40,105 bases of DNA from a virus (lineage: Duplodnaviria > Heunggongvirae > Uroviricota > Caudoviricetes). Below the pieces are notes generated by a model. The model saw only the letters and a program-made list of their open reading frames with translations, was not told where the DNA came from and did no database searches. Positions 17,009-40,105 of the stretch are shown here, in pieces. Numbering within the stretch: position 1 is the stretch's first letter; each line of letters starts with the position of its first letter. Location of the stretch: the IMG/VR virus record IMGVR_UViG_2537562190_000015; one strand, given 5' to 3'. The translations under genes were made by a program, and so were the position numbers.

Positions 17009-17017
17009 AAACATCCC

Positions 17018-18337: not shown

Positions 18338-22017
<3,680 letters not shown>

Positions 22018-22043
<26 letters not shown>

Positions 22044-22563: not shown

Positions 22564-22584
22564 TGTTCATTCCACGGCCAAAAA

Positions 22585-22752
22585 CAGAGAAAGGAAACGA
22601 CAAAGGCCCAAAAGTTCGTTTTCAGCACCTGTCGTTTCCTTTCTTTTCAGGGGGTATTTTAAATAAAAACATTAAGTTACGACGAAGAAGAACGGAAACG
22701 CCTTAAACCGGAAAATTTTCATAAATAGCGAAAACCCGCGAGGTCGCCGCCC
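22585..22752. other. cos: cos site: cosB (R3/R2/R1 GGAAACG-type terminase-binding repeats) plus cosN 12-nt cohesive end (22741-22752, AGGTCGCCGCCC, reverse complement of GGGCGGCGACCT)
   Basis: Sequence upstream of Nu1 matches the lambda left end as recalled (…GGGTATTTTAAATAAAAACATTAAGTTA…GAAAACCCGCGAGGTCGCCGCCC), followed by lambda right-end-like CGTAACCTGTCGGATCGCCGGAAAGGACCCG. Confidence 0.85.
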
Positions 22753-22951
22753 CGTAACCTGTCGGATCGCCGGAAAGGACCCGCAAAATGATAATAATTA
22801 TCATCTACATGTCACAACGTGCATCTACGCCATCAAACCACGTCAAATAATCAATTATGACGCAGGTATCGTATTAATTGATCCGCATCAACTTAACGTA
22901 AAAACAACTTCAGACAATACAAATCAGCGACACTGAATACGGGGCAACCTC

Positions 22952-23146
22952 ATGTCAACGAAGAACAGAACCCGCAGAACAACAACCCGCAACATCCGCT
23001 TTCCTAACCAAATGATTGAACAAATTAACATCGCTCTTGATCAAAAAGGGTCCGGGAATTTCTCAGCCTGGGTCATTGAAGCCTGCCGTCGGAGGCTAAC
23101 GTCAGAAAAGATAGCATATACATCAATTAAAAGTGATGAAGAATGA
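22952..23146 (+). CDS. small hypothetical protein, YlcI-like (64 aa), possible ribbon-helix-helix fold
   Basis: 64-aa ORF MSTKNRTRRTTTRNIRFPNQMIEQINIALDQKGSGNFSAWVIEACRRRLTSEKIAYTSIKSDEE; same size and position as K-12 DLP12 ylcI as recalled. Confidence 0.6.
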   Translation: MSTKNRTRRTTTRNIRFPNQMIEQINIALDQKGSGNFSAWVIEACRRRLTSEKIAYTSIKSDEE

Positions 23147-23310
23147 ACATCCCGCGTTCTTCCCTCCGAACAGGACGATATTGTAAATTCACTTAATTAC
23201 GAGGGCATTGCAGTAATTGAGTTGCAGTTTTACCACTTTCCTGACAGTGACAGACTGCGTGTTGGCTCTGTCACAGGTTAAGTAGTTTGAATGATTAGCA
23301 GTTATGGTGA

Positions 23311-23517
23311 TCAGTCAACCACCAGGGAATAATCCTTCATATTATTATCGTGCTTCACCAACGCTGCCTCAATTGCCCTGAATGCTTCCAGAGACACCTT
23401 ATGTTCTATACATGCAATTACAACATCAGGGTAACTCATAGAAATGGTGCTATTAAGCATATTTTTTACACGAATCAGATCCACGGAGGGATCATCAGCA
23501 GATTGTTCTTTATTCAT
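23311..23517 (-). CDS. small hypothetical protein, YbcW-like (68 aa)
   Basis: 68-aa [71 protein letters not shown]; position and length match DLP12 ybcW as recalled. Confidence 0.55.
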
Positions 23518-23802
23518 TTTGTCGCTCCATGCGCTTGCTCTTCATCTAGCGGTTAAAATATTACTTCAAATCTTTCTGTATGAAGATTTGAGCACGTTGG
23601 CCTTACATACATCTGTCGGTTGTATTTCCCTCCAGAATGCCAGCAGGACCGCACTTTGTTACACAACCAATACTATTAATTGAAAACATTCCTAATATTT
23701 GACATAAATCATCAACAAAACACAAAGAGGTCAGACCAGATTGAAACGATAAAAACGATAATGCAAACTACGCGCCCTCGTATCACATGGAAGGTTTTAC
23801 CA

Positions 23803-24213
23803 ATGGCTCAGGTTGCCATTTTTAAAGAAATATTCGATCAAGTGCGAAAAGATTTAAACTGTGAATTGTTTTATTCTGAACTAAAACGTCACAATGTCTC
23901 ACATTATATTTACTATCTAGCCACAGATAATATTCACATTGTGTTAGAAAACGATAACACTGTGTTAATAAAAGGACTTAAAAAGGTTGTAAATGTTAAA
24001 TTCTCAAGAAATACGCATCTTATAGAAACGTCCTTTGATAGGTTGAAATCAAGAGAAATCACATTTCAGCAATACAAGGAAAATCTTGCTAAAGCAGGAG
24101 TTTTCCGATGGGTTACAAATATCCACGAACATAAAAGATATTACTATACCTTTGATAATTCATTACTATTTACTGAGAGCATTCAGAACACTACACAAAT
24201 CTTTCCACGCTAA
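23803..24213 (+). CDS. hypothetical protein, YbcV-like (136 aa from internal ATG)
   Basis: The ORF track gives 177 aa from a TTG; the ATG at 23803 with an upstream GGAAGG gives 136 aa ([51 protein letters not shown]...). Confidence 0.6.
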
Positions 24214-24503
24214 ATCATAACGTCCGGTTTCTTCCGTGTCAGCACCGGGGCGTTGGCATAATGCAATACGTGTACGCGCTAAACCCTGTGTGCATCGTTT
24301 TTAATTATTCCCGGACACTCCCGCAGAGAAGTTCCCCGTCAGGGCTGTGGACATAGTTAATCCGGGAATACAATGACGATTCATCGCACCTGACATACAT
24401 TAATAAATATTAACAATATGAAATTTCAACTCATTGTTTAGGGTTTGTTTAATTTTCTACACATACGATTCTGCGAACTTCAAAAAGCATCGGGAATAAC
24501 ACC

Positions 24504-24797
24504 ATGAAAAAAATGCTACTCGCTACTGCGCTGGCCCTGCTTATTACAGGATGTGCTCAACAGACGTTTACTGTTCAAAACAAACAGACAGCAGTAGCAC
24601 CAAAGGAAACCATCACCCATCATTTCTTCGTTTCTGGAATTGGGCAGAAGAAAACTGTCGATGCAGCCAAAATTTGTGGCGGCGCAGAAAATGTTGTTAA
24701 AACAGAAACCCAGCAAACATTCGTAAATGGATTGCTCGGTTTTATTACTTTAGGCATTTATACTCCGCTGGAAGCGCGTGTGTATTGCTCAAAATAA
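24504..24797 (+). CDS. bor: Bor lipoprotein (serum-resistance lipoprotein family)
   Basis: 97-aa ORF MKKMLLATALALLITGCAQQTFTVQNK... with lipobox LLITGC; opposite strand to the lysis genes, as in lambda. Confidence 0.9.
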   Translation: MKKMLLATALALLITGCAQQTFTVQNKQTAVAPKETITHHFFVSGIGQKKTVDAAKICGGAENVVKTETQQTFVNGLLGFITLGIYTPLEARVYCSK

Positions 24798-24828
24798 TTG
24801 CATGAGTTGCCCATCGATATGGTCAGCT

Positions 24829-25302
24829 CTATCTGCACTGCTCATTAATATACTTCTGGGTTCCTTCCAGTTGTTTTTGCATAGTGATCAGCCTCTCTCT
24901 GAGGGTGAAATAATCCCGTTCAGCGGTGTCTGCCAGTCGGGGGGAGGCTGCATTATCCACGCCGGAGGCCGTGGTGGCTTCACGCACTGACTGACAGACT
25001 GCTTTGATGTGCAACCGACGACGACCAGCGGCAACATCATCACGCAGAGCATCATTTTCAGCTTTCGCATCAGCTAACTCCTTCGTGTATTTTGCATCGA
25101 GCGCAGCAACATCACGCTGACGCATCTGCATGTCAGTAATTGCCGCGTTCGCTAGCTTCAGTTCTCTGGCATTTTTGTCGCGCTGGGCTTTGTAGGCGAT
25201 TGCGTTATCACGGTAATGATTGACCGCCCATGACAGGCTGACGATGATGCAGATAATCAGAGCGGATATAATCGCGGTTACTCTGCTCACTGTTGCCCCC
25301 AC
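24829..25302 (-). CDS. Rz: spanin inner-membrane subunit Rz
   Basis: …[65 protein letters not shown]...; lambda Rz-like. Start is a GTG, one of two candidates; the nearer one overlaps the endolysin stop. Confidence 0.85.
24888..25070 (-). CDS. Rz1: spanin outer-membrane lipoprotein Rz1, embedded in the +1 frame of Rz
   Basis: 60-aa [63 protein letters not shown]: lipobox VVGC and proline-rich; entirely inside Rz. Confidence 0.85.
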
Positions 25303-25784
25303 AAACAGACTTCACGCTCAATCTCACGACGAGTCATCAGGCCTTTCCATTGCTTACCGCCAGCGTATGTCCAGCGACGCAGCTGATCACATGCGCCTTT
25401 GATATCGCCCTGGTTTATTTTGCGAAGAAGCGTCGATGTTCTAAAATTGCCAGCACCCACATTGTAAACGAATGAGTAAAGAGCGCCGCGCGTTGTTTCC
25501 GGTATATCAACTTTGATATACGGGTTAATTTGTCTGGCGACAGTGGCAAGGTCTTTATTCAAGAGTGCTTTGCATTCTGCTTTGGTATACGTTTTACCGA
25601 GCATGATGTCTTTTCCGGTGTGTCCGTGACATACAGTCCATACACCAACAATATCTTTGTATGGTATGTAGCTGACACCTTCCAGACCATCGTTACCACT
25701 TGGGCCAGTGATTAACACTGATGCTATAGCAATTGCTCCGCCACCAATAGCAGCAGCAACGGCTTTTCGTAATGATGGAGGCAT
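25287..25784 (-). CDS. R: SAR endolysin (lysozyme with N-terminal signal-anchor-release domain)
   Basis: 165-aa [62 protein letters not shown]...; Gly/Ala-rich weakly hydrophobic N-terminal segment typical of SAR endolysins (phage 21 / DLP12 RrrD type); not lambda R. Confidence 0.85.
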
Positions 25785-25999
25785 TATTCACCTCTCGCAG
25801 CCTTGCGCTTATCTTCTTTAATCTTGAAATAAAGGTTTGTCAGGTACGTCAGCAGGCCAAATACCAGGCTACCCAGCACACCTATTGCTGCCCACTGTGA
25901 GGGAGTGACTTTATCGAGCAGCTGTAAAAACCAGTAACCGGCACTACCTGCTGAGGTGCCATAGGCGACTCCAGTTGTTAACTTATCCATGAATTTCAT
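25784..25999 (-). CDS. S: pinholin (class II holin, S21-like) with dual-start motif
   Basis: [71 protein letters not shown] (71 aa); two Met codons (M1, M4) give a candidate holin/antiholin pair; two transmembrane segments; immediately upstream of the SAR endolysin. Confidence 0.8.
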
Positions 26000-26587
26000 A
26001 ACCCCACCTCGCAGACAAAGCGGGTGTAAATTGAGGGAATACAACGTATCGCAAAAAAGCAGAAACGTAACTGACTCCGAGTCAGTGAATAACTCAGGTA
26101 TTGAGTTATCAGCTAATATCGAGACTCAAAAAATGGAAAAACCAGCTCGACGGCGGGTTTAAGCTGTGTGACGAAGTAACCACTCTTAACAGCATAACCA
26201 ATTTTTTACGTACGTAAACCACTGAATGATATTTATGAGAATGCTACCGAGTGTTCAAAACATCACCACAAATACATAAGAAAACCTCAACAAATAACCA
26301 ATAAATAATTTCCAGTGTTATTTTTAGCCGGTTTAAATTAAACAGACGAATTATAGAACCACCATAAATAACAGCCATTAATATAAATTAGCTAATAGAT
26401 TTATTTTTGTTCAAATAAGAGCCATAAATAGGTTTCGATAGAAAAAGTTCAGATAAAAATAGAGATCTACTTCACAAATTAAATGAGAAACTAAAACTTA
26501 CATCTTGAAATAATCACATTGATTAGATGAATATTTATCGCGCAGTGACATCATTTTTTAATAATAGTTCAAAAAAAAGGGCTCACG

Positions 26588-27685
26588 ATGAAAAAATTAA
26601 CAGTGGCAATTTCTGCTGTAGCTGCATCAGTACTGATGGCGATGTCTGCTCAGGCAGCTGAAATTTATAATAAAGACAGTAACAAGCTGGATCTGTACGG
26701 GAAAGTTAATGCCAAGCACTACTTTTCCTCTAACGATGCAGATGATGGTGATACTACTTATGTTCGTCTGGGCTTCAAAGGCGAAACCCAAATCAACGAT
26801 CAGCTGACTGGTTTCGGTCAGTGGGAATATGAATTCAAAGGCAACCGCGCTGAATCTCAAGGTTCCTCCAAAGACAAAACCCGTCTTGCATTTGCAGGCC
26901 TGAAATTCGGTGACTACGGCTCAATCGATTACGGCCGTAACTACGGTGTAGCATACGACATCGGTGCGTGGACTGACGTTCTGCCAGAATTCGGTGGCGA
27001 TACCTGGACCCAAACAGATGTGTTCATGACTGGTCGCACCACTGGTGTTGCAACCTATCGTAACAACGACTTCTTTGGTCTGGTTGATGGTCTGAACTTT
27101 GCTGCTCAGTACCAAGGCAAAAACGATCGTAGCGATTTCGATAACTACACCGAAGGTAACGGTGATGGCTTCGGTTTCTCTGCTACCTATGAATACGAAG
27201 GATTCGGTATCGGTGCAACTTATGCGAAATCTGATCGTACCGACACTCAAGTTAATGCAGGGAAAGTTCTTCCTGAAGTATTTGCTTCCGGTAAAAATGC
27301 AGAAGTTTGGGCCGCAGGTCTGAAATATGACGCTAACAACATTTACCTGGCCACTACCTATTCTGAAACCCAGAATATGACTGTATTTGCTGATCACTTC
27401 GTTGCTAATAAAGCTCAAAACTTCGAAGCTGTTGCACAATATCAGTTCGATTTCGGTCTGCGTCCGTCCGTTGCTTACCTGCAATCTAAAGGTAAGGATC
27501 TTGGAGTATGGGGCGATCAGGACTTAGTCAAATATGTTGATGTAGGTGCAACCTATTACTTCAACAAAAATATGTCTACTTTCGTTGATTACAAAATCAA
27601 CCTGCTTGACAAAAATGACTTCACTAAAGCACTCGGTGTAAGCACTGATGACATCGTTGCTGTAGGTCTGGTTTACCAGTTCTAA
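26588..27685 (+). CDS. OmpC/OmpF-family general porin (phage-borne, NmpC/Lc-like), intact
   Basis: 365-aa ORF with signal peptide [40 protein letters not shown]… and C-terminal …VAVGLVYQF; orientation opposite to the late genes, as nmpC is in DLP12. Confidence 0.9.
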
Positions 27686-27694
27686 TCTGATTAC

Positions 27695-27735
27695 GAAAAA
27701 GATATGTTGCGGGAGGCGTTGCCTCCCCAACATAT
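27695..27735 (-). terminator. intrinsic terminator on the late-transcript strand (tR'-like) downstream of the Q/pR' region
   Basis: Minus strand: ATATGTTGGGGAGGC-aacg-CCTCCCGCAACATAT followed by CTTTTT. Confidence 0.5.
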
Positions 27736-27822
27736 AAGTGGCTCCCTCAAGCCACTTCCTTTAGGAGCACAACCTTGCTTCTAACTATATAAACCTTCTG
27801 TTATATATTACCCTTTATTTTT

Positions 27823-27847
27823 GGGGGCGTTGCAACGCCCCTTTTTT
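27823..27847 (+). terminator. intrinsic terminator of the porin gene
   Basis: Plus strand GGGGGCGTTGCAACGCCCC followed by TTTTTT. Confidence 0.65.
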
Positions 27848-27874
27848 AATAACTTTCAGTAAACAATTGGCATA

Positions 27875-28273
27875 TTAATTAGAGTTATTAACAACGATAT
27901 CCATCTCTAACCGGATATCTAATGCCATTAACATCCCTTCAATTATGCCCTCAGCCTTCTGTAACCTTTTCCCGATATAACCATCAGAGCAGCAATGCTT
28001 ACCTGCCAGTGACATGAATGTCATACCGACTACATAATAATCTACTAATAAATCGTGCAAATCGCTGTTGTTCTTTTTCAGACGGGCCATGCACCCGCAA
28101 ATGATCATCGCGTCATCGTCACAACATTGCGGGCGAGATTTTACTTTTGAAGGAATTAATCCCTTAAAACCGGCGGCAATGGACGACCAGGTCACATCTT
28201 CATGATTATTAGCCGCCCACGCTCCCCAACGTTCAAGAACCATCTGAATATCACACATTAACTTTCTCCACAA
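27875..28273 (-). CDS. Q: late-gene antiterminator Q (short phage 21/82/DLP12 QuuD type)
   Basis: …[74 protein letters not shown]…; about 127 aa from the internal Met; Cys-rich zinc-binding region; sits just upstream of the lysis cassette. Confidence 0.8.
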
Positions 28274-28275
28274 AA

Positions 28276-29271
28276 TCAGGCCAGCACACCAATCGCCAGT
28301 GCGCGATCGATAAAACGAAATATCAGCTCCAGCTGGGAGCCATACTTCTCTTCAAATGCCACGGTATCCGCATGCAGTTCGTCGTGGTGTTTTCTGCACA
28401 AAGGCAGCACAAAAAGGTCATGCGCTTTTGTACCCATTCCACCCTGACCATGGCCTATCAGATGATGCGGATCATCAGCTGGCTTTCCACAACATGCACA
28501 CGGCTGTGTCTTAACCCAGCGCGTGTACTTTTCATTAACCCAGCGGCGACGTTTTGGGCGTAACATAAAAGACTCCGGCGACTCCGGATCCACTTTCAGC
28601 GCCAGCACCTTTTTCGCCTTATCCTGGATGATGCTGGTGGCAGGAACCGAAGGCACAAGGTCACTTTCCCGGGTAACAGACGGCACAACAGGCTTCGGTA
28701 ATCTCAGTGCCTTACGGGCTGCACTTTCCGGTAAGGCATCCGCCAGATCATTACGAATCAGCCACCAGCACAGTTCCGGCATTGTCACAACGTGACTGTC
28801 ATCAAAACCGAGATCCCGACGCACAACAGACAACACCCAGCGGGCACAGTTATCCGTTGCCATTGATTCCAGCCGTTCCGTGAACTGATCGCGCAGCTGG
28901 TTATCGCAGTGCCAGCACAGACGGATTGCACCCGGAGCGTGTCGCATTGTGGTCATGTTCTCGCTGTGCCAGTCGGAATGAGGCCACTGGCAGCCTTTTT
29001 CACGAAGTAACCAGCTTTCAAGACATTCCACGCCACCAGCACGACGGATCACTGCCTCATTGCGGAACACGGCCCGAACGGCAGGATCATCCGCCAGCGG
29101 TTGTGATGCCGCCGGAACGGCACCACTGGCGAAAGATGAATAACGCTCCGGCTCAGGCTCCAGCAGGACACGCCCCTGCATAAACAGGGGCATCAGCTCT
29201 GAACCTGGCCTGAACAATACGATCCCCATACGCGGGGCAATTTCAGGGGTCAGTAGTGCTCTCACGGTCAC
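28276..29271 (-). CDS. DUF968-family phage protein (YdfU-like) with C-terminal Cys/His HNH-like motif
   Basis: 331-aa ORF; C-terminal …[45 protein letters not shown]… resembles an HNH/zinc-finger nuclease motif; nin-region position. Confidence 0.55.
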
Positions 29272-29272
29272 C

Positions 29273-30082
29273 TCAATGAACGGTATCGAGCAGCTTTAAC
29301 AGCTCAGGGAATCGGGATTCGAAGAAATGCGGCTGCGTCTCGCGCGGATTTGCGGGACTGGTGATGTTCTTGCCGAACATGCAACCTTTCGCTGTCAGCG
29401 ACCAGAATTTTTTGATGTTGTTAATCGCTGTACGGCTGTATCGTTCGCGCTGCTCGACGATCCCCAGTTTCACCATCTGGTGATATGCCTGATTAGCCGT
29501 CAGGCGTATACCATACTGTTTCAGCAGTGCACTCAGTGACAGTGTCGGGCGACTTGAGCCATCGTGTGCATCAGCAGGAGCATCAATGGCATAGCGCGGT
29601 GCCAGATTCGGTAAGCCAACAGCCTCCTGGAGTTTCTGACAGGCACCAAGCACTGAAGAGTTAGACAGGTTTAACTCCCGGCGCATAAAGTCCAGCAGGA
29701 TCACGCCAGCCTGCATCTTGTCAGCAGCCTGTCCGGATAATTTTTCCGGTGCGCTGGTTACCATATCGAAAGTACGGATCACCTTCAGATGGAATGACGG
29801 GCTGATCCACATTGCATAGGCATACACCAGTTCCTTGCAGACATACGTTCCCCGTTCATTTCCCCCATGAATCACACTCACCGGGTCAACACCCAAATTC
29901 TGGGTGTTGGTCAATTCATGAACAAGCTCAACAGTTTGTTGGCTGGAAAGAAACTTTCCCGGCTCCTTGGTTCTGGCATTTGCACCAGATGCTACTGCTG
30001 CGCGATGCAGATCGTTCAGGCTGTAACGCCCATAAGCATCACGACGAACTTCAATACCATCAATGACCATCAGATTATTCAT
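29273..30082 (-). CDS. KilA-N domain protein (antirepressor-like)
   Basis: MNNLMVIDGIEVRRDAYGRYSLNDLHRAAVASGANARTKEPGKFLSSQQTVELVHEL… is a typical KilA-N N-terminus; start set at the Met preceded by AGGAGA. Confidence 0.65.
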   Translation of the reverse strand: MNNLMVIDGIEVRRDAYGRYSLNDLHRAAVASGANARTKEPGKFLSSQQTVELVHELTNTQNLGVDPVSVIHGGNERGTYVCKELVYAYAMWISPSFHLKVIRTFDMVTSAPEKLSGQAADKMQAGVILLDFMRRELNLSNSSVLGACQKLQEAVGLPNLAPRYAIDAPADAHDGSSRPTLSLSALLKQYGIRLTANQAYHQMVKLGIVEQRERYSRTAINNIKKFWSLTAKGCMFGKNITSPANPRETQPHFFESRFPELLKLLDTVH

Positions 30083-30101
30083 ACTTCGTTTCTCCTCTTG
30101 A

Positions 30102-31958: not shown

Positions 31959-32896
31959 CCCCTGAATCCTGCCGGGATCTGGCTGTAGTCCACGTTGTCG
32001 TAACTGGATTTGAAGTACGGGTCTTCGCGTTTTTCGGTGTACGTGCTGACGGACGGTGATAAGCGCAGGGAAAGCTCATCCCATTTTTCCCGCAACTTCG
32101 ACGGGCTGAGCACGTTACGGCACCAGAACGGATCGCGGCTGACGCGGCTGTACATCTCGCAGATTTGTTTGTGAGTACGACCATCCTGCACACACATCAG
32201 GCGAATTTCGTTTGCCCAGGCTGTCCAGTTCGGTTCTTTGGGACGAACCACCTCGCCGTCACATTCGGCGGCTTGCTCGTACAGGGCGATGATTTTTTTC
32301 CAGAGCCACTGTGCGCAGGTCAAATCATCCTGCGTTCCCCACTGGCGCTTTTTAGGGCTGAATACAACCGCATCAGGATGGCGAGTTAAAAAATCCTGTT
32401 CATCCGTCTGCGTGTCCGGTTGCGAAGCGTCCGGACGAGAAGGTTTTTTATCTGACGGATCATGTTTTGATTTTACTGACGGATCCCCGCCAGATTCTGA
32501 CGGGTGAAAACCCGCTTTTTTGCCAGATTTCGACGCATCAAATTTTGACGGGTCAGATTTTGATGCGTCAGATTTTGACGGGTCAGAATCTGACAGTTGA
32601 GAAAATGCCGCTGCCTGAAGCTTCGCAACGTTAAGCTGATAAACATTCGACGCATTGCGGTTACCCTGGCGACGCGCCTTACGCGTTAACCAGCCTTCTG
32701 CTTCCAGCCGTGCGATAGCCGTCCTGACGGTACTCATCCCCGCGCCAATCTGACGGGCAATAGTTTCAATTGATGGCCAGCACACACCTTCGTCATTACT
32801 GAAATCAGCCAGGCGGGCCATAATTGCCACGCTGGATAATTTCATGCCTGATGCAGCGCAACCATCCCATACATAGCCGGTTAATTTAGTGCTCAT
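31955..32896 (-). CDS. replication initiator protein (O-like) containing the origin iterons
   Basis: N-terminal winged-HTH …SSVAIMARLADFSNDEGVCWPSIETIARQIGAGMSTVRTAIARLEAEGWLTRK; the middle encodes repeated SDSDPSKSDASKSDPSKFDASKSG, reflecting DNA iterons, as in lambda O. Confidence 0.75.
   Translation of the reverse strand: MSTKLTGYVWDGCAASGMKLSSVAIMARLADFSNDEGVCWPSIETIARQIGAGMSTVRTAIARLEAEGWLTRKARRQGNRNASNVYQLNVAKLQAAAFSQLSDSDPSKSDASKSDPSKFDASKSGKKAGFHPSESGGDPSVKSKHDPSDKKPSRPDASQPDTQTDEQDFLTRHPDAVVFSPKKRQWGTQDDLTCAQWLWKKIIALYEQAAECDGEVVRPKEPNWTAWANEIRLMCVQDGRTHKQICEMYSRVSRDPFWCRNVLSPSKLREKWDELSLRLSPSVSTYTEKREDPYFKSSYDNVDYSQIPAGFRG
32440..32600. repeat. ori: origin-of-replication iterons (about 6-7 copies of a ~15-17-bp CAGATTTTGACGGGT-like unit)
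   Basis: …CAGATTCTGACGGGT…CAGATTTCGACGCAT CAAATTTTGACGGGT CAGATTTTGATGCGT CAGATTTTGACGGGT CAGAATCTGACAG…, located inside the initiator gene. Confidence 0.75.
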
Positions 32897-32905
32897 GACC
32901 GACCT

Positions 32906-33244
32906 CTATTTCCCTGAATTTACGACGAAACTGTTCGAGCGGGCTGAAGCACTCATGCTCATAGCCTTCGCGGAGGTAGATAACTCGTTGTGTTTCCGGC
33001 TCCCAACGAATGACTCTGACGGGTACTCCGTAGTGATCTTTGAACCAGCGGTTAACTTGTCGCAAAGGACTGTCTCCTTCTGCCGGTTAAAATCACCCAC
33101 AGCCCACTCTGCAAAGCTGTGGGTTACAATTACCCTGCCACCTGGTACATTAACTGCATAGCAATACTCCACCTTCGCTTTTCCACCCGGTACAGGAAGC
33201 GCAATCAGTTGCGAGCGACGGTAGTGTGTTGTTAAACTGTTCAT
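32906..33244 (-). CDS. hypothetical protein (112 aa), translationally coupled between the CII-like and O-like genes
   Basis: Start overlaps the upstream stop; a GAGG lies between its own stop and the O-like ATG; no family recognised; a competing 90-aa antisense ORF exists. Confidence 0.4.
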
Positions 33245-33792
33245 GCGTTAGTTTCTCCACAGTCACGACACGCCACGGCGCCCGGAGCTGCACACTCGCG
33301 GGCGTCATTACTTTCTGAAATGCAAAAAATTTTGTAGACCAGTGCTGCATGCTCCTGCAGCTTCGAAATTGAGAGGTACAGCTCGTCGTTAATTGCTGTC
33401 TTCTCATGCGGTTCCACTACACCGTCTTCAATTGCTGAACGAATCTGTTTTGAATAACTGCCGATCTGTTCAATGACCTCCAGCAGGCGTTGGTTGATAT
33501 CGGCGTTGTCCACATCCTCGACATCAGGAAGAGACACAAAGACGCCATTTGCAGACTGCGCCACAGCGTCAGCAATGAAGTGAGTTCCACCAGCACGTTG
33601 CAAAATCATTGCCCATCCCAGCGGGAAAATCTGATCGCCATCGGCACGAAGGCGGTTAAATAATGCGTTCTCTGTTACATCCAGCCAGTCAGCAGCTTCA
33701 GCGTACCCCCCCGGCAACGCTGCGATAGTTTTTCTGACAGCTTTCACGTACCACTCAGGCTGTTTTTCTACTTTCCAGTGATGCTTACCCAC
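33241..33792 (-). CDS. CII-like / YdaT-like early regulatory protein (183 aa)
   Basis: Sits immediately downstream of cro and overlaps it; family assignment is from position and vague recollection only. Confidence 0.4.
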
Positions 33793-34045
33793 GGTTCACC
33801 TCCTGTTCCTGTGGTTTAAACCCATTCTGGTTTTGGCTAGATTGAAAACGTGCCGGATAAAGAATCTGCATTTCGCTGACTTCACCCTTAAAAAAATTGG
33901 CTAAACGTTCTGCAAGCTCGATAGATGGAATCTGCTCCAGCCTCTCAATACGACTCAACGTCGCTGGATTGACTTGAACACCCGCAGCAACATGCTGCAA
34001 AGTGAAACCATGCGCCTTACGCACATTTCGTAATGGTGATTGCAT
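33785..34045 (-). CDS. cro: Cro-like HTH repressor
   Basis: 86-aa ORF MQSPLRNVRKAHGFTLQHVAAGVQVNPATLSRIERLEQIPSIELAERLANFF…; XRE-type HTH; divergent from cI. Confidence 0.75.
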   Translation of the reverse strand: MQSPLRNVRKAHGFTLQHVAAGVQVNPATLSRIERLEQIPSIELAERLANFFKGEVSEMQILYPARFQSSQNQNGFKPQEQEVNRG

Positions 34046-34049
34046 ACGT

Positions 34050-34140
34050 CCTCCAAATATTGCGCGTTATGCATGTTATTTCACGCAATTATTTTGCGCA
34101 AGTTGATTTGCTTATCACGCAATAAAGAAATGTAATAAAC
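34050..34140. promoter_or_regulatory. OR operator/promoter region (pR / pRM) between cro and cI
   Basis: Repeated TCACGCAA / TTGCGCAA half-sites (TTTCACGCAATTATTTTGCGCAAG, TTATCACGCAATAAA) in a 97-bp divergent intergenic region. Confidence 0.6.
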
Positions 34141-34142
34141 GC

Positions 34143-34835
34143 ATGAACATAGGAAACCGAGTCAGACAACTTCGCCAAGCGAAGAACATGAAAATCGCCG
34201 ATCTCGCTGAAGCGATAGGAGTAGATGCGGCGAACATCTCGCGCTTAGAAACGGGTAAGCAAAAACAATTTACCGAACAAACACTGAGTAATATTGCCAA
34301 GAGCTTAGGTGTTGATATTGCTGATCTCTTTACCTCTGCCCACAAAAGTAATACTGTATATAAAAACAGTAATAATGAGGATGTTGCGCAGGTGAAGGAT
34401 GTGTTCCGTATTGAAATGCTGGATATCAGTGCCAGTGCGGGAAATGGCCTTATCCAGGGCGGTGATGTCATTGATGTGATTCATGCCATCGAATACAGAA
34501 CTGATAATGCTGTATCAATGTTCGGCGGACGACCAGCCAATCACATCAAAGTTATCAACGTTCGTGGGGACAGTATGTGTCCAACCATTGAGCCAGGAGA
34601 TCTCATCTTCGTTGATGTCAGCATCAATCAGTTTGATGGTGATGGTATATATGTCTTTGGTTTTGATGACAAAATATACGTTAAAAGACTTCAAATGATT
34701 CCTGACAAACTGCTGGTGATTTCTGATAACCAGATTTACCGTGAATGGGGAATTACTAGCGAAAACGAACACCGATTCATGGTCTTTGGAAAGGTCTTAA
34801 TCAGTCAGTCGCAAACCCTTAAGAGACATAATTAA
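34143..34835 (+). CDS. cI: CI-type prophage repressor (HTH plus S24 LexA-like autopeptidase)
   Basis: 230-aa ORF; N-terminal XRE HTH (KIADLAEAIGVDAANISRLETGK); Ala-Gly cleavage site (SASAGNG); S24 motifs GDSMCPTI (Ser) and KRL (Lys). Confidence 0.9.
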   Translation: MNIGNRVRQLRQAKNMKIADLAEAIGVDAANISRLETGKQKQFTEQTLSNIAKSLGVDIADLFTSAHKSNTVYKNSNNEDVAQVKDVFRIEMLDISASAGNGLIQGGDVIDVIHAIEYRTDNAVSMFGGRPANHIKVINVRGDSMCPTIEPGDLIFVDVSINQFDGDGIYVFGFDDKIYVKRLQMIPDKLLVISDNQIYREWGITSENEHRFMVFGKVLISQSQTLKRHN

Positions 34836-34854
34836 CCTCAATATCCCATCCATC

Positions 34855-34876
34855 GGCCACCGAAAGGTGGCTTTTT
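34855..34876 (+). terminator. intrinsic terminator after cI
   Basis: GGCCACC-gaaa-GGTGGC followed by TTTTT. Confidence 0.6.
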
Positions 34877-34877
34877 A

Positions 34878-34940
34878 TTACCTATAAATTTGCATATCAC
34901 GCAAATATCACTTGCATATCTCGCAATTTAATTTTATCTT
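34878..34940 (+). promoter_or_regulatory. OL operator / candidate pL promoter region
   Basis: TTGCATATCACGCAAATATCACTTGCATATCTCGCAATTTAATTTTATCTT: same TCACGCAA-type half-sites as OR, and a TTGCAT…17 nt…TATCTT -35/-10 candidate. Confidence 0.5.
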
Positions 34941-35100
34941 TTGTTCCAGACCAACTACAGGATTACAACAAAATCTGGTTGCAACACGGTGCATGTGTCG
35001 TAAGCAGTCAGTAAATGTCAAAAACGAACAGGCAGGACGCCCACGAAGTAGCCGCCTGGGGCATATGAAGTCCAGGATGATTCGTTAGCAACAAAAAAGC

Positions 35101-35126
35101 GCCCTACAGGACGCTTAGCTCTTTAA
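35101..35126 (-). terminator. intrinsic terminator of the antisense zinc-ribbon gene
   Basis: Minus strand AAGCGTCC-tgta-GGGCGCTT followed by TTTTTT, 30 bp after the stop at 35155. Confidence 0.55.
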
Positions 35127-35154
35127 CAATCTGGATATCCACAACAGTAGTAAT

Positions 35155-35646
35155 CTACAGATTGCCGTTAAGTTTTCTGGACAACTCCTCAATGGATGGA
35201 GGCGATACGTAATCCGGATTTTTATTCATCAGAAACTTATTTTCACAGTGGAGGCACCTGCTTTTATGAAAAAGCTCATCTTCGCTAACCGGGAATGGTT
35301 GAAGTATCGATACTATCTTTTGTCCAAAACATTTTGGGCAAAGATGCATGGTTATGCTGCCACCGTTCACGATTACCTCCTTCGAGTATACAAAAGTACC
35401 CGACTCAAGTTGGTTAAGGATATAGCCTTCCGTCTGAGCCTCAAAGTTTTCGAATTCTGCAATTTTAGCTTTGAGAGAAGCATTTATTTCTTGATAAGAG
35501 CCCACCAGTTCAACGAGAGACACGCATTCGCGCTGAATAGACGCAAGCTTTGAGTTCAGCTCACCAATAGCCGCATTTACTTCAGCTTGAGTTTTTGCCT
35601 CGTTCATTAGTTTTGCAATCTGGGCTGTTTCACGAATAGCCGTCAT
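35155..35646 (-). CDS. hypothetical coiled-coil plus C-terminal zinc-ribbon protein (~163 aa); candidate lysogen-expressed moron
   Basis: MTAIRETAQIAKLMNEAKTQAEVNAAIGELNSKLASIQRECVSLVELVGSYQEINASLKAKIAEFENFEAQ… then …HLCPKCFGQKIVSILQPFPVSEDELFHKSRCLHCENKF (CxxC…CxxC). The upstream part of the 259-aa ORF-track frame is Arg/Pro-rich and was judged non-coding. Confidence 0.55.
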   Translation of the reverse strand: MTAIRETAQIAKLMNEAKTQAEVNAAIGELNSKLASIQRECVSLVELVGSYQEINASLKAKIAEFENFEAQTEGYILNQLESGTFVYSKEVIVNGGSITMHLCPKCFGQKIVSILQPFPVSEDELFHKSRCLHCENKFLMNKNPDYVSPPSIEELSRKLNGNL

Positions 35647-35946
35647 TGCTGCCGTTAATTCAGCGATCACATTGAATACTCTTATTGTTGTTGGGGATAT
35701 CCAGATTAACCGAATCCTTGTTGTTGGGGAATAACCAGGTCCACCTCGCCTGATGTGGCTAAAAGCAGGCACATAACAGCTAAGTATTTTCAACCAGAGA
35801 GAATCCTTAGCGTTGTGGTGAATGCGGCTCAGCGCACGCGGGTTAAGGTTGAGGCTGACAGTCGACCTTCTGTGGATACCCACCCGCCTGGTGTGCAACC
35901 TTCGCCAGGCACCGGGAGGCACCCGGCACCACAACTTTATGCTGTG

Positions 35947-36003
35947 TGTAGTCCTGGCGGTACCAGTTTGTACCCTTGCTTCCGGCTGGTACCGTCCTTT
36001 TTT
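35947..36003 (+). ncRNA. candidate small RNA 3' end / intrinsic terminator with partial resemblance to DicF
   Basis: 9-bp stem CGGTACCAG…CTGGTACCG followed by TCC TTTTTT; the segment CCTGGCGGTACCAGTTTGTACCC resembles the DicF core TTGGCGGTATCAGTTTTACTCC as recalled from memory. Confidence 0.3.
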
Positions 36004-36004
36004 G

Positions 36005-36091
36005 CAAAACAGAGAAGAGCATCACCGGACGACGGGCTCATAACCCAATCCATCCGGGCGGCTGCCACCGCAGGTGTTCTTCTCTGTTTTG
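36005..36091 (+). other. long imperfect hairpin (14-bp perfect arms CAAAACAGAGAAGA / TCTTCTCTGTTTTG plus 4 bp), candidate RNase III processing site in the early leader
   Basis: Inverted repeat read directly; it encloses a ~46-nt GC-rich loop and sits 50 nt upstream of the first early ORF's RBS. Confidence 0.5.
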
Positions 36092-36140
36092 TGGAGAAAC
36101 CAACCGACCTTGCAAGGTCGATATGATGAGGAGCAGCAAA

Positions 36141-36503
36141 ATGGCTAGCGAACGCAGTACTGATGTGCAGGCATTTATCGGGGAGCTGGACGGCGGCGTA
36201 TTTGAAACCAAAATCGGCGCAGTTCTCAGTGAGGTCGCTTCCGGTGTGATGAACACGAAAACCAAAGGGAAGGTCTCACTCAATCTGGAAATCGAACCGT
36301 TTGATGAGAACCGTGTGAAAATCAAACACAAACTCTCATATGTTCGCCCAACTAACCGCGGGAAAATTTCCGAAGAAGACACCACCGAAACGCCGATGTA
36401 TGTCAATCGCGGTGGTCGCCTGACTATTCTGCAGGAAGACCAGGGACAATTACTGACTCTTGCCGGTGAACCTGACGGAAAACTCCGCGCAGCAGGTCGT
36501 TAA
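36141..36503 (+). CDS. hypothetical early protein (YfdP-like, 120 aa)
   Basis: ATG preceded by GAGGAG at 7-nt spacing; MASERSTDVQAFIGELDGGVFETKIGAVLSEVASGVMNTKTKGKVSLNLEIEPFDENRVKIK…. Confidence 0.6.
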   Translation: MASERSTDVQAFIGELDGGVFETKIGAVLSEVASGVMNTKTKGKVSLNLEIEPFDENRVKIKHKLSYVRPTNRGKISEEDTTETPMYVNRGGRLTILQEDQGQLLTLAGEPDGKLRAAGR

Positions 36504-36568
36504 TATCGTTCGTAATAAACTGATTATTTATCTCATCACTGAATATCTTTATATAGTGAGGACTTATT

Positions 36569-37393
36569 ATGTCTCAGAACTTAGACGCAACCGCAATTAA
36601 TCAAATCCATGCCCTTATTTCTGCTCAGGGTGTTAATGAAATTATCAGTAAGATTGGTGCCGATGCTGTGGCATTGCCTGAGAATTTCCGCATTCATGAT
36701 CTGGAAAAATTTAATTTAAATCGCTTCCGTTTCCGTGGTGCACTTTCCACTGCCAGCATCGATGATTTTACCCGTTATTCTAAAGATCTTGCAGATGAAG
36801 GCACCCGCTGCTTTATCGATGCCGATAATATGCGTGCCGTCAGTGTGCTTAACCTGGGTACTATTGATGAGCCAGGTCACGCAGATAACACTGCCACTCT
36901 CAAACTGAAAAAGACAGCACCGTTCTCTGCTCTGTTGTCTGTTAACGGCGAGCGTAACTCCCAGAAGTCACTGGCAGAATGGATCGAAGACTGGGCCGAC
37001 TACCTTGTGGGCTTTGATGCTAATGGTGACGCCATTCAAGCAACAAAAGCGGCTGCGGCAGTCCGTAAAATCACGATTGAAGCAAACCAGACCGCTGATT
37101 TTGAAGATAATGACTTCAGCGGCAAACGCTCCCTGATGGAGTCTGTCGAAGCGAAGACCAAAGACATTATGCCAGTGGCATTTGAATTTAAATGCGTTCC
37201 GTTTGAAGGTCTGAAAGAACGTCCGTTTAAATTACGCCTCAGCATTATCACTGGCGATCGTCCTGTACTGGTTCTGCGCATTATTCAGCTGGAAGCGGTG
37301 CAGGAAGAAATGGCTAACGAATTTCGTGATCTGCTTGTTGAGAAATTCAAAGACAGCAAAGTAGAAACCTTTATTGGTACTTTCACCGCCTGA
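36569..37393 (+). CDS. hypothetical early protein (YfdQ-like, 274 aa)
   Basis: 274-aa [51 protein letters not shown]…; length and neighbourhood match the CPS-53 yfdQ family as recalled. Confidence 0.6.
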
Positions 37394-37520
37394 TTTCATT
37401 ACTGCAAATGCCCCTGCGGGGGCATTTATGGAAACGTAATTAACTCAATAATCACCGGATGGTGAGGGCTTCCTTTTACCAGAATTCAGCGCGGTGCAGT
37501 GCATATACGTGGAGAACAAA

Positions 37521-38057
37521 ATGTCATTTATTAAAACTTTTTCCGGGAAGCATTTTTATTATGACAAGATAAATAAAGACGACATCGATATTAACGATAT
37601 CGCGGTTTCCCTTTCAAATATCTGTCGCTTTGCCGGTCATCTTTCGCACTTCTACAGCGTCGCCCAACATGCGGTTCTTTGCAGCCAGCTGGTGCCGCAG
37701 GAATTTGCTTTTGAAGCGTTAATGCATGATGCAACAGAAGCGTATTGCCAGGACATTCCCGCACCACTGAAACGCCTTCTTCCTGACTATAAACGGATGG
37801 AAGAAAAAATAGACGCCGTAATCCGTGAGAAATACGGGTTACCCCCAGTTATGAGTACACCCGTGAAATATGCCGATCTCATCATGCTGGCAACCGAACG
37901 CCGCGATCTCGGGCTTGATGATGGCTCTTTCTGGCCTGTACTGGAAGGCATCCCGGCAACAGAAATGTTCAACGTGATTCCACTGGCACCGGGTCATGCC
38001 TACGGGATGTTTATGGAACGTTTTAACGATTTATCGGAGTTACGCAAATGCGCATGA
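37521..38057 (+). CDS. HD-domain phosphohydrolase (YfdR-like, 178 aa)
   Basis: His and Asp motif residues in …FAGHLSHFYSVAQHAVLCSQLVPQEFAFEALMHDATEAYCQDIP…; start at the Met preceded by GGAG. Confidence 0.65.
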   Translation: MSFIKTFSGKHFYYDKINKDDIDINDIAVSLSNICRFAGHLSHFYSVAQHAVLCSQLVPQEFAFEALMHDATEAYCQDIPAPLKRLLPDYKRMEEKIDAVIREKYGLPPVMSTPVKYADLIMLATERRDLGLDDGSFWPVLEGIPATEMFNVIPLAPGHAYGMFMERFNDLSELRKCA

Positions 38058-38410
38058 ATGTTTTCGAAATGGAAGGGTTTCTTCGCGGGAAATGTGTACC
38101 GCGAGATCTGAAAGTGAACGAAACAAATGCTGAGTACCTGTTACGTAAATTCGACGCGCTTGAAGCTAAATGTGCGGCACTGGAAAACAAAATAATACCA
38201 GTGTCAGCTGAACTGCCACCAGCAAATGAAAGTGTTCTGTTATTTGATGCTAATGGAGAAGGCTGGCTGATTGGCTGGCGTTCTCTCTGGTACACCTGGG
38301 GACAAAAAGAAACCGGAGAATGGCAGTGGACATTTCAGGTCGGGGACCTTGAAAACGTCAATATCACTCACTGGGCAGTAATGCCAAAAGCACCGGAGGC
38401 TGGAGCATAA
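38048..38410 (+). CDS. hypothetical protein (YfdS-like, 120 aa)
   Basis: 120-aa ORF, Trp-rich C-terminus (…GWLIGWRSLWYTWGQKETGEWQWTFQVGDLENVNITHWAVMP…); overlaps neighbours in operon fashion. Confidence 0.55.
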   Translation: MRMNVFEMEGFLRGKCVPRDLKVNETNAEYLLRKFDALEAKCAALENKIIPVSAELPPANESVLLFDANGEGWLIGWRSLWYTWGQKETGEWQWTFQVGDLENVNITHWAVMPKAPEAGA

Positions 38411-38715
38411 TGACCACATTTACCAATAAAGAACTGATTAAAGAAATCAAAGAACGAATCAGCAGCCTAGAGGTTCGAGACGATATTGAGCGCCGTGCTT
38501 ATGAAATCGCACTCGTATCTCTGGAAGTAGAGCCAGATGAACGCGAAGCCTATGAATTATTCATGGAAAAGCGTTTCGGTGACTTAGTAGATCGTCGGAG
38601 AGCAAAAAACGGCGATAACGAATACATGGCATGGGATATGACTCTCGGTTGGATCGTCTGGCAGCAACGAGCTGGTATCCATTTTTCAACAATGTCACAG
38701 CAAGAGGTGAAATAA
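38410..38715 (+). CDS. hypothetical protein (YfdT-like, 101 aa)
   Basis: 101-aa ORF MTTFTNKELIKEIKERISSLEVRDDIERRAYEIALVSLEVEPDEREAYELFMEKRF…; ATGA overlap with the upstream gene. Confidence 0.55.
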   Translation: MTTFTNKELIKEIKERISSLEVRDDIERRAYEIALVSLEVEPDEREAYELFMEKRFGDLVDRRRAKNGDNEYMAWDMTLGWIVWQQRAGIHFSTMSQQEVK

Positions 38716-39086
38716 TGGAGCCATACAGCCTCACACTCGATGAGGCCTGTCATTTTCTCAAAATATCCAGACCGACTGCCATTAACTGGATACGCACAGG
38801 CCGCCTACAGGCAACACGTAAAGATCCAACCAAGCCAAAATCTCCTTACCTCACAACACGGCAAGCTTGCATTGCGGCGCTTCAGTCTCCGCTGCATACT
38901 GTCCAGGTGAGCGCGGGTGATGGCATAACAGAGGAAAGAAAATGTCACTCTTCCGCAGAAATGAAATATGGTATGCCTCGTATTCGCTCCCGGGCGGGAA
39001 ACGAATTAAGGAATCTCTTGGCACAAAGGACAAGCGGCAAGCTCAGGAGTTGCACGACAAGCGAAAAGCAGAACTCTGGCGAGTAG
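38715..39086 (+). CDS. xis: excisionase-like HTH protein (Xis/AlpA family); 3' extent uncertain
   Basis: [38 protein letters not shown]… is a typical excisionase/AlpA HTH; sits directly upstream of and overlapping int. The frame runs 145 nt into int, so the true stop may be earlier. Confidence 0.55.
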
Positions 39087-40105
39087 AAAAGCTAGGGGAT
39101 TTACCTGATGTCACTTTTGAAGAGGCCTGCCTAAGATGGCTTGAGGAAAAAGCTGATAAAAAATCTCTCGATTCAGATAAAAGCCGGATTGAGTTCTGGC
39201 TTGAACATTTTGAGGGTATAAGGCTTAAAGATATCTCGGAGGCAAAGATTTACTCTGCTGTAAGCAGAATGCATAACAGAAAGACGAAAGAAATATGGAA
39301 ACAGAAAGTTCAGGCCGCCATCAGGAAAGGTAAAGAACCGCCTGTTTATGAACCAAAGCCAGTATCAACTCAGACAAAGGCAAAGCATCTTGCCATGATA
39401 AAGGCCATTCTCCGTGCTGCAGAACGCGACTGGAAGTGGCTGGAAAAAGCGCCTGTCATCAAGATACCAGCGGTCAGAAACAAGCGAGTCAGATGGCTGG
39501 AAAAGGAGGAAGCAAAACGCCTTATTGATGAGTGCCCCGAACCACTGAAATCTGTCGTCAAGTTTGCGCTGGCAACTGGTCTGAGAAAGTCGAACATCAT
39601 AAATCTGGAATGGCAACAAATCGACATGCAGCGACGAGTTGCCTGGGTGAATCCAGAAGAGAGCAAATCAAACCGCGCCATTGGTGTGGCGCTGAACGAT
39701 ACCGCCTGTAAAGTGTTGCGTGATCAAATAGGCAAGCATCACAAATGGGTGTTTGTACATACCAAGGCGGCTAAGCGAGCAGATGGAACATCAACGCCTG
39801 CGGTCAGGAAGATGCGCATCGACAGCAAGACATCATGGCTATCAGCTTGTCGTCGTGCAGGAATTGAAGATTTCCGTTTCCATGACCTCAGACACACCTG
39901 GGCAAGCTGGCTGATCCAGTCAGGCGTCCCATTATCTGTGCTTCAGGAAATGGGCGGATGGGAGTCCATAGAAATGGTTCGTAGGTATGCTCACCTTGCG
40001 CCTAATCATTTGACAGAGCATGCAAGGAAAATAGACGACATTTTTGGTGATAATGTCCCAAATATGTCCCACTGTGGAATTATGGAGGATATAAAGAAGG
40101 CGTAA
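38942..40105 (+). CDS. int: tyrosine site-specific integrase (DLP12 IntD-like)
   Basis: 387-aa [53 protein letters not shown]… with C-terminal catalytic R…[11 protein letters not shown]…Y motifs; the stop codon is the last 3 nt of the window. Confidence 0.9.

Follow-up and report, generated by a model that had tools for sequence, protein, structure and literature searches.

A stretch of 40,105 nucleotides (nt) from the virus record IMGVR_UViG_2537562190_000015 (here called the window) combines genes of phage lambda with genes known from the cryptic prophages of Escherichia coli K-12, and its span 22564-40105 raises the question of whether these remnants descend from phages of this kind. The initial annotation of the span had described it as an intact-architecture relative of elements that survive only as remnants in K-12. 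The span very probably represents the early-regulatory, replication, late-control and lysis half of a lambdoid prophage of about 46.5 kb at argU, the K-12 remnants being derived from like phages. The element itself is already known, since RefSeq annotates it and a phage of 98-99% identity has been deposited (PV340556).

At about 99.98% identity, the window matches a prophage of the E. coli O103:H2 strains 12009 (NC_013353.1) and FWSEC0007 (NZ_CP031908.1). A megablast search with 22564-40105 gave 100% matches in O103:H2 chromosomes (12009, FWSEC0007 and relatives) and a 99% match to phage PhiR29_1 (PV340556). In the matching genomes the prophage is located between argU/fimZ and ompT/envY, like the K-12 prophage DLP12. 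The tRNA-Arg gene argU begins 15 bp past the right end of the window, where a flanking tRNA had been predicted, and is followed by fimZ and the sfm genes. No tRNA was found by ARAGORN within the window, consistent with argU lying just outside it. An attachment (att) repeat of 47 bp is present at both prophage ends, in argU and between ompT and envY, in strain 12009 and in K-12. The same 47-mer occurs near the end of the PhiR29_1 record, the first 55 nt of which are argU-proximal sequence. The homologous locus of K-12 has the order argU-intD...nohD-aaaD'-tfaD...ompT-envY. Since the argU site and the att repeat are shared, the O103 element is the full-length occupant of the DLP12 site, with 40.1 kb of its roughly 46.5 kb in the window. 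It carries the features of the DLP12-site family, namely insertion at the 3' end of argU with the 47-bp repeat beyond ompT, IntD, and the quuD-nmpC-essD-rrrD-rzpD block. Prophages at this site have been found in 74% of 638 E. coli and Shigella genomes, and the 47-bp att repeat at argU has been reported (PMC6379469). The description as a relative of the remnants therefore stands but is too cautious for DLP12, of which the element is a same-site, full-length counterpart.

In the segment NC_013353.1 617011-618433 (L002 28012-29434) the att repeat lies beyond ompT, and the PhiR29_1 record (L010 43326-46223) contains ompT, an alpha/beta hydrolase gene and a ybcY-type methyltransferase gene. As ompT lies on the prophage side of the att repeat and is part of the PhiR29_1 record, the outer-membrane protease OmpT appears to be carried as cargo by the argU-site phage family.

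Three K-12 prophages match the window collinearly, and their junctions can be read to the base, so that the element may serve as a reference for them. In DLP12, the segment from aaaD' to nmpC corresponds to window 21736-27627 (97.9% nt identity), the end of nmpC and quuD to 27619-28293 (97.6%), tfaD to 111-527 (94.5%) and the integrase end to 38847-40105 (99.4%). The aaaD'/tfaD joint of DLP12 corresponds to a deletion of window 528-21735, from the interior of terminase gene A to tfa. The homology stops exactly at the IS5 insertion in nmpC, and the porin of the window is the uninterrupted form of the IS5-split K-12 gene (99.1% identity over 347 amino acids). A terminase to stf/tfa stretch is gone from both Qin (nohA/stfQ, L239 6799-7368) and DLP12 (aaaD/tfaD, L003 21354-22098). 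The end points differ (window 22035 to about 1322 in Qin, 21736 to 527 in DLP12), and the same kind of large late-region deletion arose twice.

In CPS-53, the block yfdM'-yfdN-yfdO' corresponds to window 31198-32663 (98.1% nt) and the block yfdP-Q-R-S-T-ypdJ to 36122-38771 (97.8% nt). The two blocks abut in K-12 (L004 11586/11587), and the 3,458 bp of window 32664-36121 are missing there. The missing segment holds a repressor with a helix-turn-helix (HTH) and an S24 peptidase domain, a Cro-like protein, a CII of the CP76 type, ymfM and the N-terminus of the O-like gene. Homologues of yfdM, N, O, P, Q, R, S and T are present in the window in the same order and orientation as in CPS-53, with 97.6-100% protein identity (98.3-99.4% for yfdP-T). 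The initial annotation had recognized the yfd series from the sizes of the open reading frames (ORFs), and had foreseen an intact cI-cro-CII region between the yfd blocks. Protein comparison bears out the first proposal, at 97.6-99.4% identity, and the BLAST search that could have shown these ORFs to be unrelated to the series gave the opposite result. The second is borne out by the same 3,458 bp, with a CII of the CP76 family in place of lambda CII. K-12 yfdM corresponds to codons 1-89 of Dam, and it is the sole part of the nin-like block that survives in a K-12 remnant.

In e14, oweE, ymfM and ymfL correspond to window 32663-33820 (95.2% nt) and ymfH to 35741-36130 (89% nt), and the flanks of the immunity block are accordingly e14-like. 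The N-terminal 234 nt of the O-like gene (codons 1-78) are retained in e14 as oweE, and codons 79-313 are retained in CPS-53 as yfdO.

Together, DLP12, CPS-53 and e14 match 72% of 22564-40105 at 89% nt identity or more. The parts not covered are 28294-31197 (DUF968, KilA-N, RusA, the LexA-type DNA-binding protein and the rest of Dam), which has no match in a K-12 remnant at that threshold, and 33821-35740 (cro, cI and a 171-amino-acid ORF). A whole-prophage alignment against lambda, DLP12, CPS-53 and Qin had been proposed as a check. The first three match strongly, whereas Qin, like Rac, shares with the window only tail-fibre, nohA/ylcI-type and Rz fragments, besides YdfU at 57% identity; the contribution of e14 had not been named. 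DLP12, CPS-53 and e14 thus appear to be derivatives, by deletion and insertion sequence (IS) decay, of phages with the architecture of the window, and this descent would be the reason why the window fills in their gaps. The locus would then be a textbook illustration that the K-12 cryptic prophages are deletion derivatives of mosaic lambdoid phages still circulating intact.

At window 36104-36130, the end of the ymfH-like ORF forms a mosaic boundary beside a GACCTTGCAAGGTC palindrome, where related phage contigs run into at least eight different downstream sequences. The left end of the CPS-53 deletion (36121/36122) and the end of the e14 homology (36130) both fall inside this segment. It was considered as a second TA hot spot of the kind described below and rejected, being an ordinary module boundary with alternative downstream modules.

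The late half of the element follows the genome plan of lambda, with cos, then Nu1 and A, head and tail genes in lambda order and a collinear J-Tfa region. By blastn, window 11918-22752 is 99.77% identical to lambda 1-10837, 9861-11925 is 99.6% identical to lambda 10910-12975 (H), 4761-9821 is 93.6% identical to lambda 13378-18461 (M-J), and 22753-25289 is 98.2% identical to the right end of lambda (48502-45967). The lambda 1/48502 boundary therefore falls at window 22752/22753. The proteins Nu1, W, E, D, FII, Z, U, G and T and most of A are 100% identical to those of lambda. The near-identity of the structural module to lambda that the initial annotation had claimed is evident in these values (99.8% nt for the heads and proximal tails). 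The early and late-control genes also stand in lambdoid order, with a divergent repressor/cro pair, a CII-like gene, an O-like initiator with iterons, Q, and then holin, endolysin and Rz.

The lysis cassette had been assigned to the DLP12/phage-21 pattern on the basis of a pinholin, a signal-arrest-release (SAR) endolysin, a short Q and an opposite-strand porin, and identities of 98.4-100% together with Pfam matches agree with that assignment. Pfam and direct reading of the sequence identify lysis of the phage 21 pinholin/SAR-endolysin type. The accessory proteins (YlcI, YbcW, YbcV and Bor) are 97-100% identical to those of both DLP12 and the lambda right end.

The features of the window are compiled in the following table.

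Features of the window (positions on the 40,105-nt stretch)
Feature	Position	Strand	Remarks
lambda-type late module	98-22563	-	Tfa, Stf, Lom-like, J, I, K, L, (M deleted), H (broken), T, G, V, U, Z, FII, FI, E, D, C, B, W, A, Nu1
canonical loxP	9826-9859	+	inside 42-nt scar 9822-9863; scar = CGTA + ATAACTTCGTATAGCATACATTATACGAAGTTAT + ACGA
80-nt deletion junction in H	11918-11925	-	lambda ~10838-10917 missing, between G-runs (MAFFT); tape-measure gene frameshifted
cosN	22728-22761	-	exact 34-nt lambda match; cohesive-end sequence GGGCGGCGACCT at 22741-22752
accessory genes	22952-24797	mixed	ylcI (22952-23146 +), ybcW (23311-23517 -), ybcV/DUF1398 (23803-24213 +), bor (24504-24797 +)
spanin RzpD	24829-25290	-	99.3% to K-12 RzpD; Rz1 embedded
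SAR endolysin RrrD	25287-25784	-	100% to K-12 RrrD; PF00959; G/A-rich SAR N-terminus
pinholin EssD	25784-25990	-	100% to K-12 EssD; PF04971 (P21 holin S), E = 1.7e-35; two transmembrane domains read directly
intact porin, 365 amino acids	26588-27685	+	opposite strand, between Q and lysis genes; Pfam Porin_1, E = 1.8e-156
short Q antiterminator (QuuD type, 127 amino acids)	27875-28258	-	98.4% to K-12 QuuD; PF06530 (Phage_antitermQ), E = 1.5e-52
nin-like block	28276-31464	-	DUF968/HNHc_6, KilA-N, RusA, LexA DNA-binding domain, Dam; Pfam
DUF968/HNHc_6	28276-29265	-	Qin YdfU 57% identical
KilA-N	29273-30082	-	Pfam
RusA	30102-30491	-	Pfam
LexA-DNA-binding-domain-only protein, 108 amino acids	30488-30814	-	without peptidase domain; absent from K-12 remnants
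Dam-type N6-adenine methyltransferase, 217 amino acids	30811-31464	-	residues 1-89 100% identical to YfdM
yfdN, PerC-domain protein, 164 amino acids	31464-31958	-	97.6% to K-12 YfdN; directly downstream of O-like gene
O-like replication initiator, 313 amino acids	31955-32896	-	N-terminal winged HTH (HTH_36), weak DnaD_N/RP-C matches; Pfam
putative ori iterons in O-like gene	32524-32587	-	15-bp period, 4.3 copies (Tandem Repeats Finder)
recurrent deletion breakpoint	32659-32666	-	sense GGG-TA-ACC, codon 78; crossover TA 32662-32663
ymfM-like ORF, 112 amino acids	32906-33244	-	94.6% to e14 YmfM; YmfM annotated as cell-division inhibitor in e14
CII-like YmfL	33241-33792	-	PF06892 (CP76); 95.1% to e14 YmfL
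Cro-like HTH	33785-34045	-	HTH_3; divergent from repressor
operator-like region (putative)	34046-34142	.	repeated TTGCGC/GCGCAA motifs throughout the 98-bp cI-cro spacer
CI-like repressor	34143-34835	+	HTH + Peptidase_S24; GDSM serine motif; VKR lysine motif read as YVKRL
hypothetical ORF, 171 amino acids	35155-35670	-	annotation of strain 12009
ymfH-like ORF, frameshifted	35815-36126	+	89% nt to e14 ymfH
yfdP	36141-36503	+	CPS-53 homologue
yfdQ/DUF2303	36569-37393	+	CPS-53 homologue
yfdR 5'-deoxynucleotidase	37521-38057	+	CPS-53 homologue
yfdS/DUF551	38048-38410	+	CPS-53 homologue
yfdT	38410-38715	+	CPS-53 homologue
recombination module	38631-40105	+	attL in argU starts just past window
xis-like ORF	38631-39086	+	N-terminal part like CPS-53 ypdJ, C-terminal part like DLP12 xisD
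IntD integrase	38942-40105	+	99.2% identical to K-12 IntD

From right to left, the annotation of strain 12009 lists intD, a partial xis-like gene, yfdT, a 'phage protein' (the yfdS homologue), yfdR, yfdQ, yfdP, a frameshifted small ORF, a hypothetical gene, an XRE-family repressor, a Cro-like HTH gene, ymfL, a DUF4222 gene and the O-like HTH gene. It continues with yfdN, the N6-adenine methylase, a LexA-family gene, RusA, KilA-N, DUF968, quuD, the opposite-strand porin, essD, rrrD, rzpD, bor, ybcV, ybcW, ylcI and nohD. The ymfM-like ORF is not annotated in RefSeq, where an overlapping DUF4222 ORF (32886-33065) is given instead.

The immunity block is held in common with e14 only at its flanks. 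Neither cro nor cI of the window has a DNA match in K-12 or PhiR29_1, which points to a different immunity specificity. The only Pfam match of YmfL is PF06892, outside the lambda CII family (PF05269), and tblastn gave no lambda cII match; YmfL is thus to be called CII-like by position and family name only. A simple sigma-70 scan of the cI-cro spacer gave no match and is not informative. The C-terminal part of the O-like protein is 30% identical to part of lambda O (tblastn). Degenerate iteron copies in the O-like gene extend to about 32478, followed by an A-rich stretch, and the iterons are a putative ori, placed inside the gene as lambda ori is placed inside O. No homologue of the helicase loader P was identified, and the gene that follows the O-like gene is yfdN with its PerC domain. 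In the nin-like block, the LexA-type protein consisting of the DNA-binding domain could be an uncleavable binder of SOS boxes.

The element is a mosaic of modules that circulate among the temperate phages of E. coli and Shigella. These are the heads, tails and cos of lambda, a late-control and lysis block of the DLP12/phage-21 type (Q, porin moron, pinholin, SAR endolysin, spanins and bor), an early block of the SfII/SfV/CPS-53 type (yfdP-T, O-like initiator, yfdN and Dam), and an immunity block with e14-like flanks and a cI/cro pair of its own specificity. The tyrosine integrase of the IntD type is predicted to place the prophage into the 3' end of the tRNA-Arg gene argU of enterohaemorrhagic E. 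coli of the O103:H2 type. Homology to lambda and phage 21 suggests that the divergent promoters would be held by a self-cleaving repressor of the LexA type and that an SOS response would lead to expression of Cro and CII. The O-like protein would fire at the iterons within its own gene, Q would read through into the lysis and structural genes, and Int and Xis would excise the element at argU, all by homology likewise.

Whether the copy in the window is also intact in function is a separate matter. That every lambdoid module is present and correctly ordered, and that cos, int/xis and an intact repressor are there, would fit a fully functional, inducible phage, and a near-identical phage record, PhiR29_1, exists in which M is present and H has its full length (2,562 nt). 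In the copy of the window, however, an 80-nt deletion shifts the frame of H, a loxP scar has taken out most of M together with the H 3' end, and the ymfH-like ORF is frameshifted as well. In lambda, the tail genes H and M are both essential. In view of the frameshift in H and the scar, the copy would be unable to make tails by itself, and a fully functional phage is improbable. Of the intact-architecture relative proposed initially, the architecture holds and the intact copy does not.

The two lesions differ in origin. The H deletion is common to the natural strains 12009 and FWSEC0007, in both of which RefSeq records H as frameshifted, and it is therefore natural and older than the loxP scar. 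The loxP site is an exact 34-bp match (13-bp inverted arms and the spacer GCATACAT; chance expectation 0). Where the scar stands, 12009 and FWSEC0007 have 402-405 bp of sequence covering the H 3' end and most of M, and the scar was found in none of 5,426 complete E. coli genomes. Since a perfect loxP replaces a missing native segment, the window looks as if it came from an engineered derivative or an edited sequence with a Cre/lox signature. The scar bears on provenance, in that the window is not a purely natural sequence.

Some points weigh against the interpretation of the element as a lambdoid prophage of the kind from which the K-12 remnants arose. Function is assigned to its genes through homology only. 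Because the tail genes are broken, the statement that the element works as a phage holds only for close relatives. Without an identified P homologue, replication is only partly lambda-like. It cannot be proven that CPS-53 and e14 descend from precisely this architecture, as they occupy other att sites with other integrases and have only modules in common with the window.

The K-12 remnants also point to a recurrent breakpoint within the O-like gene. The end of the e14 homology and the start of the CPS-53 homology coincide there, at ...CGCCAGGGT|AACCGCAATG... When IMG/VR was scanned with the 24-mer to the left of the break, 120 loci were retrieved. Of these, 115 were intact, two had the e14-type joint, and in three the same nucleotide was joined to other sequence, namely lom, capsid gene E and an Rz1-like region. 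Two more joints came from the right-hand 28-mer. Later targeted patterns and one metagenome scan were built around TA and are hence biased toward it. The resulting catalogue, drawn from IMG/VR and gut-metagenome contigs, contains 14 left-retaining and 5 right-retaining distinct joints, e14 and CPS-53 included, so that at least 17 further independent deletions end at 32662-32663.

All 19 joints are collinear deletions and span 1.2-31 kb where the partner can be placed. The partners include the LexA DNA-binding-domain gene, KilA-N, DUF968 (twice), the holin gene, Rz, capsid gene E, lom, stf, an SfV-type terminase gene and an e14-type tail gene. Leftward, they include the cro/cII region (twice), the region upstream of yfdP (CPS-53 type) and yfdR/S. 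In 18 of the 19 joints the crossover is at TA, with left ends in ...GGGTA and right ends in TAACC..., giving a 2-nt overlap, and every recoverable intact partner site of the TA-crossing joints has TA at the crossover. Two positions after the TA (+2), 15 of 18 partners have C (p = 3e-7), and there is a tendency to G at -3 and -2, which corresponds to a loose GGnTAnC.

In unbiased samples, a control GGTNACC site in the KilA-N gene had no novel joints among 126 loci, compared with 5 of 120 at the hot spot (Fisher p = 0.026). The rate of joints per nucleotide at the hot spot is about 200-fold that in the rest of the O-like gene, where only scattered single breaks were found in the same loci. A protein search returned many other fusions of O (with the LexA DNA-binding domain, DUF968, Q, tail sheath and others), and the gene is thus deletion-prone in general, with codon 78 as a sharp peak on that background. 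A scan of genome contigs gave only chance matches in unrelated phyla, and literature searches returned no description of such a recurrent breakpoint.

The chances are about even that GGG-TA-ACC at codon 78, about 60 nt upstream of the iterons, is a sequence-directed site of DNA breakage or exchange and a major route by which these prophages are grounded. A nuclease or strand-transfer enzyme making a staggered break with a 2-nt TA overlap, the end then being joined with the help of microhomology to partly similar sites containing TA, is our best guess on the cause, and it is put forward with equal reserve. The preference for TA and for C at +2 of the partner across 18 distinct collinear joints, the excess over the control site in unbiased samples and the local rate all favour a process of this type. 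Against it, no candidate nuclease has been identified, the gyrase consensus does not fit, the local single-stranded DNA fold is unremarkable and the later scans were biased toward TA by design. The many other breakpoints in the O-like gene also count against it, and selection against replication-competent trapped prophages contributes.

Several specific agents were considered and set aside. BstEII or Eco91I, which cut at GGTNACC, are unlikely, since the window contains 13 such sites, the control site is cold and the variable position among partners is not the N of GGTNACC. A hairpin-driven event was rejected because the 91-nt single-stranded fold is no better than shuffled sequences (z = -0.99). 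A Pin/Hin-type invertase, a terminase pseudo-cos, an IS608-type TTAC target, a Dcm/Vsr nick at the adjacent CCAGG, and RusA/RuvC preference do not fit a TA-centred 2-nt overlap either, judged in several cases by consensus sequences. An assembly artefact was rejected in view of the microhomology of only 2-6 nt, the different isolates, and the presence of the e14 and CPS-53 junctions in finished K-12 genomes.

The clustering might also reflect a point of template switching in replication, or selection and ascertainment alone, with no dedicated cleavage; this alternative is somewhat less likely. The site is close to the iterons, two more breaks lie at the same position of successive iterons, and all joints are collinear with microhomology, as copy-choice or microhomology-mediated joining would predict. 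In non-excisable prophages, selection for the loss of O or ori is to be expected, in line with the replicative killing described for lambda. Selection, however, cannot fix one dinucleotide for both the left-retaining and the right-retaining class, there is no strong hairpin, and the clustering was already seen in the unbiased samples.

The two iteron breaks belong to independent deletions (loci L018 and L086, window 32557 and 32572) at ...TCAAAAT|, a hint that the iterons are also preferred break points. On the plus strand, the hot spot (32650-32680) reads GGTTAC-CCT-GGCGAC and resembles the lambda cosN GGTTAC-GGGGC-GGCGAC (22728-22761). This resemblance is probably a coincidence, because the spacing and the 2-nt overlap do not fit a terminase cut.

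It is very improbable that a single reciprocal or cut-and-paste event gave rise to both e14 and CPS-53: their truncated O genes complement each other exactly (codons 1-78 and 79-313) with both junctions at TA 32662-32663, and the block kept by e14 (ymfH to O') is nearly the block missing from CPS-53, but the e14/window homology runs 8-9 nt beyond the CPS-53 junction at the ymfH end so that the pieces overlap, at least 17 other deletions with different partners in unrelated genomes use the same TA, and by reasoning the chromosome geometry required would leave mismatched att sites. The many independent joints at this TA mean that a common hot spot accounts for the coincidence, and the recurrent breakpoint also explains why the K-12 fragments yfdO and oweE complement each other. 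If the sequence-directed break is real, e14 (with its oweE-aaaE fusion and ymfN) and CPS-53 (with its truncated yfdO) would be two of at least 19 independent products, and an enzyme (nuclease or recombinase) or a process linked to the origin, acting with a 2-nt TA overlap and loosely preferring GGnTAnC partners, would await discovery. One dinucleotide serving as the end point of many prophage-inactivating deletions bears on prophage domestication and on a possible specific enzymatic driver.

Among known systems, phage 21 shares its type of lysis (S21 pinholin and R21 SAR endolysin) with the element through the P21 holin S family and the SAR N-terminus, a link made via DLP12 and Pfam only. The Shigella serotype-converting phages SfII, SfIV and SfV match window 28.2-39.2 kb at about 96%. 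Lambda shares cos, Nu1 to T (99.8% nt), H (99.6%), L to J (94%) and the right end with Rz, bor and lambdap78/79 (98%), whereas int/xis, exo-bet-gam, N, cI/cro/cII, P, the nin region, Q, S and R show no similarity. CPS-53 (KpLE1) shares yfdM'-N-O' and yfdP-T at 98% nt but differs in its argW site, IntS/TorI and gtr genes, and window 32664-36121 and all sequence downstream of codon 89 of Dam are absent from it. In e14, O codons 1-78, ymfM and ymfL (95% nt) and ymfH (89%) are alike, whereas the integrase, the icd att site, the cI/cro pair (ymfK/ymfT) and the SfV/Mu-like late genes are its own, and the O gene is fused to a terminase fragment (ymfN).

The Escherichia phages PhiR29_1 (PV340556) and PhiR49_1 have the same gene order from int to ompT and the same argU att fragment at the genome ends. 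PhiR29_1 is 98-99% identical in nt over window 11918-33820 and 35020-40105, and it differs in its intact H and M, its e14-type cI/cro (another immunity) and parts of the tail fibre. Plaque formation by PhiR29_1 is inferred from a deposited phage record with a listed host. DLP12 shares the argU site, the 47-bp att repeat and IntD (99.2%), and its genes ylcG'-quuD-nmpC-essD-rrrD-rzpD-bor-ybcV-ybcW-ylcI-nohD-aaaD' are collinear with the element at about 98% nt. It differs in the loss of all head and tail genes (window 528-21735), in IS5 in nmpC and IS3 in renD, and in a lambda/P22-like early region (exoD', peaD', renD, emrE, ybcK-ybcO and rusA) that takes the place of the yfd, O-like and immunity block.

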